From assembly GCF_024502345.1 (NCBI RefSeq), contig NZ_JALDNN010000001.1: a DNA stretch of 64,000 nucleotides; one strand, 5' to 3'. Of the stretch, positions 50,738 through 52,806 are shown in pieces. The stretch is from Escherichia coli. GTDB lineage: Bacteria > Pseudomonadota > Gammaproteobacteria > Enterobacterales > Enterobacteriaceae. The translations under genes and the position numbers were made by a program. Positions within the stretch are counted from its first letter, which is position 1; every line of letters starts with the position of its first letter. A model generated the notes under the pieces. The model worked only from the letters and a program-made list of their open reading frames with translations, had not been told where the DNA came from and searched no databases.

Positions 50738-51022
50738 TTATTTAGAGTCTTTAAACAAGGGTAACCCCTGTGAACGCCGCCATTCTTTGACAATTTTCAG
50801 GATGTTTTCAGGCTTATCATCTCCTTGACTTTTAGGGTAGAAAATTAGATCGCTCCCTGACGGATGCTGTGTAATTTCAATAAAATGATCTACTAATGAA
50901 TCCCAGTACATTTCTAGCTCCTTACCTTTTAAGGATTTTCCATCTTTCATAGATGATCTCAATCCGCCTAAAAAATTAAGAAATTCATCCTCGGTATAAT
51001 CCTGGAGCTTTTCTTTAAACAT
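50738..51022 (-). CDS. Cognate colicin-E-type DNase immunity protein (Im9-like)
   Basis: 94 aa: DYTEDEFLNFL, ITQHPSGSDLIFYP, VKEWRRSQG align with Im9; ATG 2 nt after the toxin stop, with AGGAGA Shine-Dalgarno inside the toxin's last codons. Confidence 0.85.
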   Translation of the reverse strand: MFKEKLQDYTEDEFLNFLGGLRSSMKDGKSLKGKELEMYWDSLVDHFIEITQHPSGSDLIFYPKSQGDDKPENILKIVKEWRRSQGLPLFKDSK

Positions 51023-51024
51023 AT

Positions 51025-52806
51025 TTATCTCCTGTAGTGAATCTCATCGTGTAGTCTGGGGGTAACAATTCGTAAATTATCAATATCGTATACGCTGCCG
51101 CCATATTCAATTGCAACACGATGATGTATCTGGAATTTTTTAACTATTTCTTTAGGGCCATAATGCCAACCGTCAATAGGTGCTTTTGCGGTTAATCCTT
51201 GTTTTATACGTGTTTGGTTACCACTTGAAAACTGCGCTATCAACTCCGGATCCTGACTCACCTCCAGCCACAGCGCCTCGCGAAACTCATCAAAGGTTTT
51301 AAACTCCCGTCCGCGCAATTTATCAGCAATATGCGCCGGGATTGGCGCGCCGTTGCCGTTATTGGATACCGACATATCCAGCCAGCGAGTTCCTGATGAA
51401 AGCGGGACGCCGCGCCCTGTTACAACACCAGGCAGCTTTCGCGGATCCTCCTTCAGGTAAACATAGATGGGCTTAATACCGGATCCCGCCGGAAAAACCA
51501 GAATATAATCGTTGAATTCTTTCGGATCAGGAACCGGGAATGGCGGCGTGGTATAGGTATCTGTACCGTCCGGAATCGGCGTCACCAGAATGGTGGGCTG
51601 ATCCAGCGGCGGCCTGTCGTTACCGGTATGGCCCGGAACATTCCCATGTTCCGGATTTTCCGGCGTCCAGGTAATCAGGGGGCCATCGACATCGTGAGCG
51701 GGGGTAAATTCATAACGCTGCGTCTGCTCGTTCCACTGCATGTTCGCCACGCGGACTTTTTCATACGGCGTACCTTCACCCGTATGAACACCATACACCT
51801 GAGGCTTGCCGTGAATATCAGTTCCCCAGAAAAAACGTACCCGGGTGGTGGCGGTACTGCCTGCTAGTGCTTTCTGCCGCAGTTCTTCCTCATACCAGAA
51901 CTCATCACGTCCGGGCACGCGAGCACTGCCCTCGCCCGCAGAGGGAATATACAAAGCAGATGCCAACGCACCGATGTAAGAGCCTCGGGTTGCACTGAGT
52001 ATGCCACTGAGCGACCATTTTCCCCATATTTGAGCCGCCAACACACTACCCGGAAACAGTAGCATGGTTTGAGCTTCTGCGGGTTGCCCGACATCGTTAG
52101 CCTCGGGATGGTGGTATCCACAGCAGTCATCAACCACTGGCTGAGCAAAAATCGCTACTTGACCGAAGTTTTCAGCGGGTTCTTCTGCCGTTCCAGCATC
52201 TGTACATCCCTTCTCCTTCAGACAGGATTTGGCATAGACCGGGTTAACCGCTGGTGAAGAGAGTGGAAGGTTAACAACTGGTAGAGGTTCAGGCTTAAGA
52301 TTACTGGCAGGTGGGCTTTTAGGCGGAATAAATAAGCTATTATAGCCAGCAGGAAAGGTCAACCAGTCAAATTCCGTATTGGCTATTAGATGTTTACATA
52401 ATATGTAGTGATAATCGACAGTTACACATTCGGTAGGAAGATTATTGTCAGAAATGTTTACATGAATAGCAGTTAATGAAGCATTTCTTAGCTGAATATA
52501 ATAATACCGTTCCCAGCGCCCGCTTTTATTTATACGATACAAATCGATTTCAATAAATAACCGCTCATTCTGATTGATGGCATTAGACAGTAGCGGTGAG
52601 CTTTTATCAATGAGTTTGCAAAATTGTAGCCCCTGTAGATTAACGCCATTACCAGTACTGGTAATGGCGTTGGTGAGTGCAAAGGCAAAAATTTCATCTT
52701 CATGGCCAACCTGCCAGCGATTACCAACCGACGCATACGTCCCACAGCCTGAAGAAATATCGCCCTGCTTCTCACCGATTATTCTCAGGTAAACAATATC
52801 GCTCAC
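51025..52806 (-). CDS. Hcp (T6SS TssD) fused to C-terminal colicin-E9-type HNH DNase domain (Hcp-extended toxin)
   Basis: N-terminal ~150 aa match Hcp (MSDIVYLRIIGEKQGDISSGCG.., GHEDEI, KLIDKSSPLL, LRNASLTAIHV); C-terminal ~135 aa align with the colicin E9 DNase domain (VTGRGVPL..WLD..GAPIPAHIADKLRGREFKTFDEFREALWLEVSQDPEL..HHRVAIEYGGSVYDIDNLRIVTPRLHDEIHYRR); Pro-rich linker between. Confidence 0.85.
   Translation of the reverse strand: MSDIVYLRIIGEKQGDISSGCGTYASVGNRWQVGHEDEIFAFALTNAITSTGNGVNLQGLQFCKLIDKSSPLLSNAINQNERLFIEIDLYRINKSGRWERYYYIQLRNASLTAIHVNISDNNLPTECVTVDYHYILCKHLIANTEFDWLTFPAGYNSLFIPPKSPPASNLKPEPLPVVNLPLSSPAVNPVYAKSCLKEKGCTDAGTAEEPAENFGQVAIFAQPVVDDCCGYHHPEANDVGQPAEAQTMLLFPGSVLAAQIWGKWSLSGILSATRGSYIGALASALYIPSAGEGSARVPGRDEFWYEEELRQKALAGSTATTRVRFFWGTDIHGKPQVYGVHTGEGTPYEKVRVANMQWNEQTQRYEFTPAHDVDGPLITWTPENPEHGNVPGHTGNDRPPLDQPTILVTPIPDGTDTYTTPPFPVPDPKEFNDYILVFPAGSGIKPIYVYLKEDPRKLPGVVTGRGVPLSSGTRWLDMSVSNNGNGAPIPAHIADKLRGREFKTFDEFREALWLEVSQDPELIAQFSSGNQTRIKQGLTAKAPIDGWHYGPKEIVKKFQIHHRVAIEYGGSVYDIDNLRIVTPRLHDEIHYRR

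Follow-up and report, generated by a model that had tools for sequence, protein, structure and literature searches.

The window, the whole stretch of 64,000 nucleotides that was analysed, contains the junction between usp and imu in PAIusp, a small pathogenicity island, here in a B2-type E. coli; in type VI secretion nomenclature the locus is known as Hcp-ET3-4/ETI. At this junction the last two codons of a DNase toxin gene also carry the Shine-Dalgarno sequence of the immunity gene behind it. Taken as a whole, the explanation that we consider probable is that both genes share one mRNA, that imu is translated via the AGGAG in the toxin's tail, that coupling to toxin translation is additive, and that the layout is ancestral. 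The junction itself is already known as part of the well-studied usp–imu (Hcp-ET3-4) island and its layout is ordinary, as in classical colicin operons, while a search of the literature revealed no published statement on the Shine-Dalgarno-in-tail detail for usp.

The island and its surroundings

The island is bounded by two flanking genes:

47430..48227, minus strand: pdhR, island flank
53384..54757, plus strand: aroP, island flank

Both features by which PAIusp is recognized were found here, namely insertion in the aroP–pdhR intergenic region and a usp gene with two or three Im-like genes behind it, with the window holding one cognate, two intact orphan and one frameshifted orphan immunity gene in an island of low GC. 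PAIusp has been described previously, with usp silenced by H-NS and driven by the aroP P3 promoter (PMC7142922), and 948 of 5426 complete E. coli genomes have it, in every case in the aroP–pdhR interval; the same flanks were seen at loci L001, L011-L013 and L022 (L011 being that of LF82). These surveys used exact-protein look-ups together with annotated E. coli and plasmid records, since a set limited to a single genome per species fails to capture the island, and a profile scan of contigs from that set with the immunity alignment returned a single locus. Compared with PAIusp of uropathogenic E. coli (usp plus imu1-3/orfU1-3), the window shares the aroP–pdhR site and the 593-aa toxin architecture and differs in that its imu3-type cassette is present in an additional 698-bp copy and its last immunity gene has lost 7 nt by deletion. 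The Hcp-ET3-4/ETI3-4 system (UTI89_C0121), as far as its published summary describes it, is the same gene under another name, an Hcp domain joined to Pyocin_S and colicin DNase domains, with three duplicates of the immunity gene behind it; at the level examined it does not differ from the window. Placing the window in this well-characterized virulence and competition island (usp/imu, Hcp-ET3-4) carries little weight beyond annotation.

A DNase toxin and its Im-type immunity protein

The toxin–immunity pair consists of:

51025..52806, minus strand: usp (uspII-like)/Hcp-ET3-4 toxin gene, 593 aa, with Hcp (TssD) N-terminal, Pyocin_S and colicin/pyocin HNH DNase domains
51034..51429, minus strand: colicin-type HNH DNase domain of the toxin, residues 460-591 (PF21431, E 6e-42)
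50738..51022, minus strand: cognate immunity gene (imu/orfU2-type; ETI), 94 aa (PF01320, PDB matches, UTI89 identity)

Pfam matches place T6SS_HCP at toxin residues 28-139 (PF05638, E 1.5e-12), Pyocin_S at 309-450 and Col-Pyo_DNase at 460-591, and the toxin scores 124.7 bits against NCBIfam TIGR03344 (cut-off 58.9), so that it shows the fusion of an N-terminal Hcp/TssD domain to a toxin domain that marks an Hcp-ET. The best PDB matches of the DNase domain are pyocin AP41 and the colicin E9, E2 and E7 DNases (E 1e-32 to 1e-28), and only 18 of the 593 toxin residues differ from UTI89_C0121. In the account that a review gives of earlier work, Hcp-ET delivery into target cells is reported to be T6SS-dependent and the three immunity duplicates of Hcp-ET3-4 to neutralize its DNase (Ma et al. 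2017 via review PMC6730261).

The immunity gene had been called Im9-like in the first-pass annotation, and it does encode an Im9/Im7-type DNase immunity protein. Its product matches PF01320 at full length (E 8.1e-30, model positions 1-82 of 82) as well as 28 PDB immunity chains (E 2.5e-20 to 2e-10, the best being ImAP41, Im7, ImS2 and Im9), it is 100% identical to UTI89 WP_000471928.1, and its gene lies 2 nt downstream of a toxin with a PF21431 domain, the gene order of the family. The hot-spot motif in helix III of Im9 is Asp51-Tyr54-Tyr55 within DLIYYP; the corresponding stretch here is SDLIFYP (residues 57-63), with Phe in place of the first Tyr and with the Asp and second Tyr unchanged, and in the proteins of orphan cassettes 1 and 2 (described below) it is SDLIYYP. 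The biochemistry of such Usp–immunity pairs is contested: Usp (UspI) and OrfU1-His were reported to co-purify as a tight complex with reduced nuclease activity, the activity of Usp being H-N-H-dependent (PMC3685522), whereas another group did not see a tight Usp–Imu complex and disputed inhibition by Imu3 (PMC3917654). Co-purification of toxin and immunity protein, an experiment suggested for this DNA earlier, is already in print for UspI and OrfU1 (PMC3685522).

The toxin's last two codons and the immunity Shine-Dalgarno

Direct reading of the minus strand gives ...ATT CAC TAC AGG AGA TAA AT ATG TTT AAA... across the junction, which divides as follows:

51033-51028, minus strand: AGGAGA, the toxin's final two Arg codons (AGG AGA) and the Shine-Dalgarno of the immunity gene (sequence, anti-SD duplex, conservation)
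51027-51025, minus strand: toxin stop codon TAA, 2 nt ahead of the immunity ATG
51024-51023, minus strand: intergenic gap AT (sequence reading)
51022-51020, minus strand: immunity start ATG (sequence reading)

The proposed placing of the immunity ATG 2 nt past the toxin stop was confirmed by this reading, and so was the proposal that the ..HYRR terminus (TAC AGG AGA TAA) doubles as a Shine-Dalgarno, in that AGGAGA falls inside the last two Arg codons and is conserved at the nucleotide level. The AGGAG lies 6 nt from the ATG and its duplex with the 3' end of 16S rRNA (anti-SD) reaches -7.4 kcal/mol, with only 2.8% of random 20-mers drawn from the window pairing at -7 or better. The three residues past the last catalytic histidine would be free to carry such a nucleotide signal. 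An Rfam scan of the island returned sub-threshold chance matches only, and no known RNA element is present at the junction.

The E-group DNase colicin operons (cea–cei–cel of ColE2, E7, E8 and E9) and klebicin B encode homologous DNase and immunity proteins and, like the window, place the immunity ATG 1-2 nt after the toxin stop. In these colicins and klebicin B the Shine-Dalgarno is likewise made by codons past the last HNH histidine, as in ColE2 with CAT AGA GGT AAG TAA AA ATG. Stop-to-start gaps across the wider set were 2 nt in ColE2 and ColE8, 1 nt in klebicin B and in an Enterobacter bacteriocin, -4 nt in a Vibrio S-type toxin and 0 nt in an IncF orphan. The details differ, with the colicin tail HRGK holding GAGG about 9 nt from the ATG and the window tail HYRR holding AGGAG 6 nt from it, and the colicins, unlike the window locus, are plasmid-borne and SOS-induced, are accompanied by a lysis gene, and possess receptor and translocation domains where the window toxin has Hcp. 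Because the same design (AGA GGN within ...H-R-G-K) recurs in ColE2, ColE8, klebicin B and related bacteriocins, the tight toxin–immunity layout is, as judged from these sequences, an ancestral and standard trait of nuclease bacteriocin–immunity pairs.

A signal kept at the nucleotide level

The comparison covered 12 distinct 3' ends of homologous toxins, drawn from E. coli, Salmonella, Superficieibacter and an Enterobacteriaceae MAG; these sequences are related and do not count as independent samples. It revealed AGG at the penultimate codon in all 12 and, at the last codon, AGA in 11 and AGG in 1, with stop-to-start gaps of 2-5 nt. Because AGG AGR is fixed while all 14 preceding codon positions vary, the Shine-Dalgarno at the toxin tail looks to be selected at the nucleotide level. 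The same signal is found in Salmonella immunity arrays, where CAYTACAGGAG is kept in spacers of 69-71 nt without an upstream toxin ORF, even though the immunity genes of these arrays are only 59-80% identical; one Salmonella unit has AAGAG instead of AGGAG.

These patterns bear on the possibility that the AGG AGA tail is a protein-level or codon-bias trait of a horizontally acquired, low-GC gene whose likeness to a Shine-Dalgarno is coincidental. Such an origin would fit the low GC of the island and the fact that AGR makes up 21% of the toxin's Arg codons (6 of 28; in the DNase domain 9 of 12 are CGN). It is at odds with the constancy of AGG AGR in 12 of 12 junctions, where Arg positions elsewhere alternate between CGN and AGR (an internal one is CGA in 6 homologues, CGT in 3 and AGA in 1), with the motif surviving in the Salmonella spacers, which are non-coding there, and with the colicins, whose different tail (HRGK) still puts GAGG at the equivalent place, and we regard it as extremely improbable. 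Arg codon usage and conservation over the 12 junctions likewise led us to reject an origin of AGG AGA by chance.

Among the main and the three orphan cassettes, the block TACAGGAGATA was invariant. The first-pass annotation had expected toxin 3' ends and immunity 5' ends to co-evolve, an idea that did not hold up: the junction block stays the same while its flanks diversify, and an invariant block points to a conserved shared element and not to reciprocal change. Co-evolution of toxin and immunity gene at the junction was rejected on this ground. The comparative evidence is modestly useful in that it suggests a ribosome-binding site that constrains the toxin's final two codons and that travels as a module in immunity-only arrays, and the usp–imu junction offers a small, clean example of dual coding with a ready design for comparing coupled and independent translation of an immunity gene.

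How the immunity gene is translated

In the explanation that we favor, toxin and immunity genes would be transcribed on one mRNA from the published usp promoter (aroP P3), and the immunity protein would be translated through the AGGAG in the toxin's final Arg codons. With a gap of only 2 nt, ribosomes finishing the toxin could begin again at the immunity start, which would provide at least one immunity protein per toxin, and free 30S subunits most likely also initiate at the junction AGGAG since the site lies in unstructured RNA and persists without an upstream reading frame. Coupling would then add to immunity expression but not be required for it.

Secondary structure that hides the Shine-Dalgarno is the usual basis of obligatory coupling. 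The pair has the short stop-to-start distance expected of coupled genes (2 nt), but no masking structure was found in the fold of the 140-nt junction RNA, whose centroid leaves both the Shine-Dalgarno and the ATG unpaired and whose minimum free energy (-17.9 kcal/mol) is less stable than the shuffle mean (-22.2; z +1.33). Translational coupling of usp and imu is plausible from the sequence, and it seems unnecessary given this open structure, the Salmonella AGGAG sites without a toxin ORF and the varying spacing of the cassettes.

A stricter version of the coupling read by the first-pass annotation, in which only, or almost only, ribosomes fresh from termination 2 nt upstream translate the immunity gene and immunity output is locked to toxin output, draws on the narrow gap itself, on the gaps of 0-2 nt or the ATGA overlap of related bacteriocins, on the consensus scan that detected no internal promoter, and on the coupling of colicin and immunity genes already proposed for colicin operons (PMC2896534). 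We consider it rather unlikely: besides the exposed Shine-Dalgarno, 30S subunits are expected to bind directly to a 5-bp AGGAG whose spacing is near-optimal, the orphan immunity genes of Salmonella keep their Shine-Dalgarno without an upstream ORF, and orphan cassettes in the window combine broken toxin frames with intact immunity genes.

The tail could also act on the toxin itself. Rare Arg codons in tandem immediately ahead of a stop are reportedly effective in bringing about SsrA tagging in E. coli, and AGG-AGA-stop might be a programmed termination pause that holds the ribosome over the immunity start, favors reinitiation and leaves part of the nascent toxin tmRNA-tagged and degraded. This is quite unlikely in our estimation; if true, output would be biased toward excess immunity protein, and the 15-nt tail would be a portable expression module that could explain the toxin-less copies in the Salmonella arrays.

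A further alternative gives the immunity gene a promoter of its own, located within the 3' part of the toxin gene and responsible for most of its expression, with AGGAG the ordinary Shine-Dalgarno of a separate short transcript. Producer cells need immunity before the toxin is induced, the AT-rich toxin 3' end and immunity genes (GC of the cognate one 0.36) favor promoter-like sequences, TTTAAA-16-GATAAT promoter-like sites at each immunity stop could feed the downstream orphans, and there is precedent in some E-group colicin plasmids, which are said to have constitutive immunity promoters inside the colicin gene. However, a consensus scan, a weak kind of test, detected no sigma-70-like promoter within the terminal 500 nt of usp and no minus-strand site with at least 9 of 12 matches between 51023 and 51500. 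Promoter and terminator counts over the island equaled the shuffle expectation (15 promoter-like sites against 16.3), the toxin 3' end gave no hit, and the silencing of usp by H-NS and its drive from aroP P3 (PMC7142922) also count against a separate promoter, which we judge very unlikely.

Orphan cassettes and hairpins

Downstream of the cognate pair lie three orphan cassettes:

50040..50580, minus strand: orphan cassette 1, a toxin 3' remnant plus an imu3/orfU3-type immunity gene (ORF list, alignment)
50331..50580, minus strand: toxin remnant of orphan 1 with a 1-nt frameshift (Shine-Dalgarno 50338-50343; ancestral-frame TAG 50335-50337)
50040..50330, minus strand: immunity gene of orphan 1, imu3/orfU3-type, intact, 96 aa (published Imu3 primer matches MYNFKD...; PMC3917654)
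49342..49882, minus strand: orphan cassette 2, a near-identical 698-bp tandem duplicate of cassette 1 (alignment A1)
48650..49184, minus strand: orphan cassette 3 (orfU1-type), degenerate, with a premature TAA, Shine-Dalgarno 48942-48947, stop 48939-48941 and ATG 48931-48933

It had been proposed that the orphans retain the arrangement of the main junction, and this stands only in part, in that the motif TACAGGAGATA is kept in all of them, but their gaps are 4-5 nt instead of 2 nt and all three toxin frames are broken. Orphans 1 and 2, whose immunity genes both match the published Imu3 primer (PMC3917654), read TAG + TTAA + ATG in the ancestral frame (a 4-nt gap), their 1-nt frameshift lying upstream of the final HNH histidines. 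In orphan 3 the junction reads TAA + TGTAT + ATG (5 nt), with a premature TAA at 48989-48987 in its toxin remnant and an immunity gene frameshifted by the 7-nt deletion.

The orphan toxin fragments begin at WLEVSQ[D/Y]PELIAQF and thereby resemble the orphan toxin-tip/immunity cassettes of Rhs and CdiA systems, which likewise pair a toxin 3' fragment starting at a conserved motif with its cognate immunity gene. A cassette type can also be the main one in one strain and an orphan in another, the type of orphan 3 being intact and in the main position in LF82. A chimeric query joining the upstream part of the main toxin to the orphan-1 cassette, designed to reveal an imu3-type cassette in the main position, gave, among the 40 best records (1018 more remaining), two-piece matches throughout, with a window-like arrangement. 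In contrast to Rhs and CdiA, the window fragments, at about 80 codons, are short and hold the HNH motif and the immunity-binding exosite alone, all three are disrupted, and the Salmonella arrays have no toxin fragment at all.

Two hairpins accompany these genes:

50684..50710, minus strand: 10-bp hairpin (ATCATCGCAT / ATGCGATGAT) past the immunity gene (fold -13.7 kcal/mol, z -2.5)
48592..48626, minus strand: 12-bp hairpin (GAAAATCATCAC / GTGATGATTTTC) at the island end (RNA fold; Salmonella arrays)

The 10-bp hairpin recurs after orphan cassettes 1 and 2 (alignment A1), and the 12-bp hairpin is also found between the immunity genes of the Salmonella arrays.

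A ribosome-binding site in the last codons of the toxin gene

Read on the minus strand, the junction between the toxin gene usp (also Hcp-ET3-4) and its immunity gene runs GAG ATT CAC TAC AGG AGA TAA AT ATG TTT AAA GAA. This reading bears out the coordinates and sequence of the first-pass annotation, as well as its placement of a Shine-Dalgarno (SD) sequence inside the toxin's terminal codons:

51025..52806, minus strand: toxin ORF, 593 aa, C-terminal end H-Y-R-R
51033-51028, minus strand: AGGAGA, exactly the final two Arg codons of the toxin
51027-51025, minus strand: toxin stop TAA
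51024-51023, minus strand: two-base gap (AT) between toxin and immunity gene
50738..51022, minus strand: immunity ORF, 94 aa, ATG at 51022-51020

In this main cassette AGGAG lies 6 nt from the immunity ATG and pairs with the 16S rRNA 3' end at -7.4 kcal/mol, with just 2.8% of random 20-mers drawn from the window reaching -7 kcal/mol or better.

To evaluate the terminal codons we compared homologous loci from four sources, namely E. coli (L001, L011-L013), Salmonella enterica (L003-L006, L010), Superficieibacter with related metagenome contigs (L007-L009) and an Enterobacteriaceae MAG (L002). These gave 12 distinct junctions with toxin context, which are related sequences, such that the counts are not independent events. 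Each of the 14 codon positions between -16 and -3 showed two or more codons, codon -2 was AGG in 12 of 12, and codon -1 was AGA in 11 and AGG, a still better SD, in one. An internal Arg position among the homologues read CGA six times, CGT three times and AGA once, and 9 of the 12 Arg codons in the window toxin's DNase domain are CGN; AGR is therefore not the default Arg choice in this toxin.

The most telling evidence for a selected ribosome-binding site comes from the Salmonella arrays (L003-L006 and L010, the latter at 3279-5377 in Salmonella enterica subsp. salamae CP022467.1), where up to six immunity genes lie in tandem with no toxin fragments between them. Their 69-71 nt spacers are made up of a hairpin with a 12-bp stem and, immediately after it, the toxin gene's final 15 nt, CAYTACAGGAG(A)TAA (CAYTACAGGAGATAA), with an in-frame stop upstream of this motif and no start codon in the toxin-tail reading frame seen within the spacers. 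The immunity proteins are 59-80% identical to one another, whereas the spacers are 82-100% identical. Because spacers without a toxin ORF keep the motif, it has been retained, among the related sequences compared, for immunity expression rather than for the toxin protein.

Translational coupling is plausible but probably not required

The 2-nt gap is compatible with termination-reinitiation. A 140-nt RNA spanning the junction folds at -17.9 kcal/mol against a shuffle mean of -22.2 (z +1.33, less stable than its own shuffles), and both SD and ATG are unpaired in the predicted centroid structure, so there is no structure for upstream translation to open. In Salmonella the same SD precedes immunity genes that lack an ORF upstream, and spacing varies, from 2 to 5 nt between stop and start among homologues and from 6 to 9 nt between AGGAG and ATG among the window cassettes. 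The unmasked SD, these Salmonella genes and the variable spacing speak against obligatory coupling, which is plausible but probably not required for immunity expression. We favour a mixed mode, in which terminating ribosomes would reinitiate and 30S subunits would also enter directly at the immunity start. A promoter scan, itself weak evidence, found no promoter-like site over the 3'-terminal 500 nt of usp. A more novel but improbable reading is that the rare codons of AGG-AGA-stop also make ribosomes pause at termination, or act as a determinant of SsrA tagging, and in this way tune the toxin:immunity ratio; it is reportedly supported by Hayes et al. 2002.

Similar junctions are found in bacteriocin operons. 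Gaps of 2 nt occur in ColE2 (two plasmids; CAT AGA/CGG GGT AAG TAA AA ATG) and ColE8 (CAC AGA GGT CAG TAA AA ATG), gaps of 1 nt in klebicin B and an Enterobacter S-type bacteriocin, an ATGA overlap (gap -4 nt) in a Vibrio S-type toxin, and TAAATG (gap 0 nt) in an IncF orphan pair. Relatives whose junction was read carry a purine-rich, SD-like run in Arg-Gly (or Lys-Gly) codons after the last HNH histidine. This run is weak in two cases, CGG GGT of the second ColE2 plasmid and GGTGA of the Enterobacter bacteriocin. Since classical relatives share this layout and bacteriocin-immunity translational coupling was already proposed for E-group colicins (PMC2896534), the SD-in-tail junction is an ancestral trait of this family and has been recognised before. 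The usp gene differs from its colicin relatives only in its HYRR tail (versus HRGK), its closer and stronger SD, and its chromosomal, Hcp-fused context.

A known toxin-immunity system

The downstream gene was rightly assigned to the immunity family, as its 94-aa product covers the whole PF01320 model (colicin/pyocin immunity; E 8e-30) and matches 28 solved immunity proteins, including ImAP41, Im7, ImS2, Im9, Im8 and Im2. From N- to C-terminus the toxin comprises Hcp/TssD, Pyocin_S and colicin/pyocin HNH DNase domains, the last with matches to pyocin AP41 and colicins E9, E2 and E7, and it scores above the curated cut-off of TIGR03344. The island is flanked in the window by:

47430..48227, minus strand: pdhR
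53384..54757, plus strand: aroP

Annotated records carry tssD and 'bacteriocin immunity protein' genes between aroP and pdhR, and 948 of 5426 complete E. coli genomes hold the island at >=80% coverage, the others matching the flanks alone. At the UTI89 locus the first immunity protein is 100% identical, the junction sequence is the same, and 18 of 593 toxin residues differ. In the clinical strain E. coli FCI23 (L013:1-1300), an IS1 remnant truncates the pdhR-proximal island end beside a TEM-1 beta-lactamase gene.

The usp/imu system is already known. Usp alone is toxic, its H-N-H motif is essential, Usp and OrfU1-His form a tight complex co-purified on Ni-agarose with reduced nuclease activity, and uspI is linked with orfU1 and uspII with orfU2 (PMC3685522). 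Another group did not find a tight Usp–Imu complex and reported that Imu3 binds DNA (PMC3917654); the Imu3 primer published there matches the MYNFKD... genes, which are window orphans 1 and 2. In T6SS nomenclature the usp gene UTI89_C0121 is Hcp-ET3-4, followed by three immunity duplicates that each neutralise the DNase (PMC6730261).

Orphan cassettes and cassette exchange

An alignment of the four window cassettes runs from the toxin motif WLEVSQ(D/Y)PELIAQF past the immunity stop. The suggestion that orphan cassettes keep the junction stands for its sequence, TACAGGAGATA being unchanged in all four, and fails for its arrangement, which differs through four-base TTAA or 5-nt gaps and broken toxin frames. 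Orphans 1 and 2 (49342-50580, minus strand) are of imu3/orfU3 type and form a 698-bp tandem duplicate; each has a 1-nt frameshift ahead of the last HNH histidines, and in the ancestral frame each reads YYRR-TAG, then TTAA, then ATG. UTI89 and FDAARGOS_943 carry a single copy. The imu3-type toxin remnant (50331-50580 and 49633-49882, minus strand) has the same frameshift in all strains sampled (window, L001, L011-L013); the accompanying immunity gene is undamaged and occurs very commonly. The impression is of a toxin tip that has been disarmed and kept on for the sake of its immunity gene. Orphan 3 has a TTA-to-TAA nonsense codon at 48989-48987 and a 5-nt stop-to-start gap. Compared with FDAARGOS_943, LF82 and AVS0247, its immunity gene is missing 7 nt. 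This deletion (region 48887-48933, minus strand), a slippage event at a TAAAATA repeat, puts the 5' end out of frame, and what remains is an ORF of 78 aa beginning at an internal ATG.

By sequence comparison, cassette types change places between strains: in LF82 (L011) an intact orphan-3 type occupies the main position and the window's main type is an orphan (compared with window 48650-51290), a swap that matches the published uspI/orfU1 and uspII/orfU2 subtypes. That LF82 orphan is intact and annotated 'HNH endonuclease signature motif containing protein'. A search with a chimeric query was checked through its 40 best records, none of which had a cassette of imu3 type in the main position.

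The proposed nucleotide-level co-evolution of toxin 3' and immunity 5' ends was not borne out, the junction block being conserved without reciprocal change. Toxin and immunity would be expected to co-vary as proteins, at the DNase exosite and in the immunity helices carried by each cassette. The immunity C-terminus VKEWRRSQGLPLFKDSK (50738-50790, minus strand; sequence alignment A2) is invariant, or nearly so at its last three residues, across E. coli, Salmonella and Superficieibacter, and the region keeps ~91% nucleotide identity within the Salmonella array while protein cores diverge. Together with WLEVSQ(D/Y)PELIAQF, VKEWRRSQGLPLFKDSK brackets the variable core of exosite plus immunity, much as two homology arms would in an exchange of cassettes.

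Hairpins and promoter-like sites

Folding and consensus matching located the following, all on the minus strand:

50684-50710, 49986-50012 and 49288-49314: hairpins with 10-bp stems after the first three immunity genes
48592-48626: hairpin with a 12-bp stem, GAAAATCATCAC / GTGATGATTTTC, at the island end
50728-50755, 50030-50057 and 49332-49359: promoter-like TTTAAA-16-GATAAT across the stop codon of each intact immunity gene

The 10-bp and 12-bp hairpins are more stable than shuffled sequence (z -2.5 and -2.2), and the 12-bp hairpin is the same as in the Salmonella array spacers. These hairpins are candidate terminators, processing sites or stabilisers, and the TTTAAA-16-GATAAT sites, as consensus matches only, could drive the downstream orphan cassettes.
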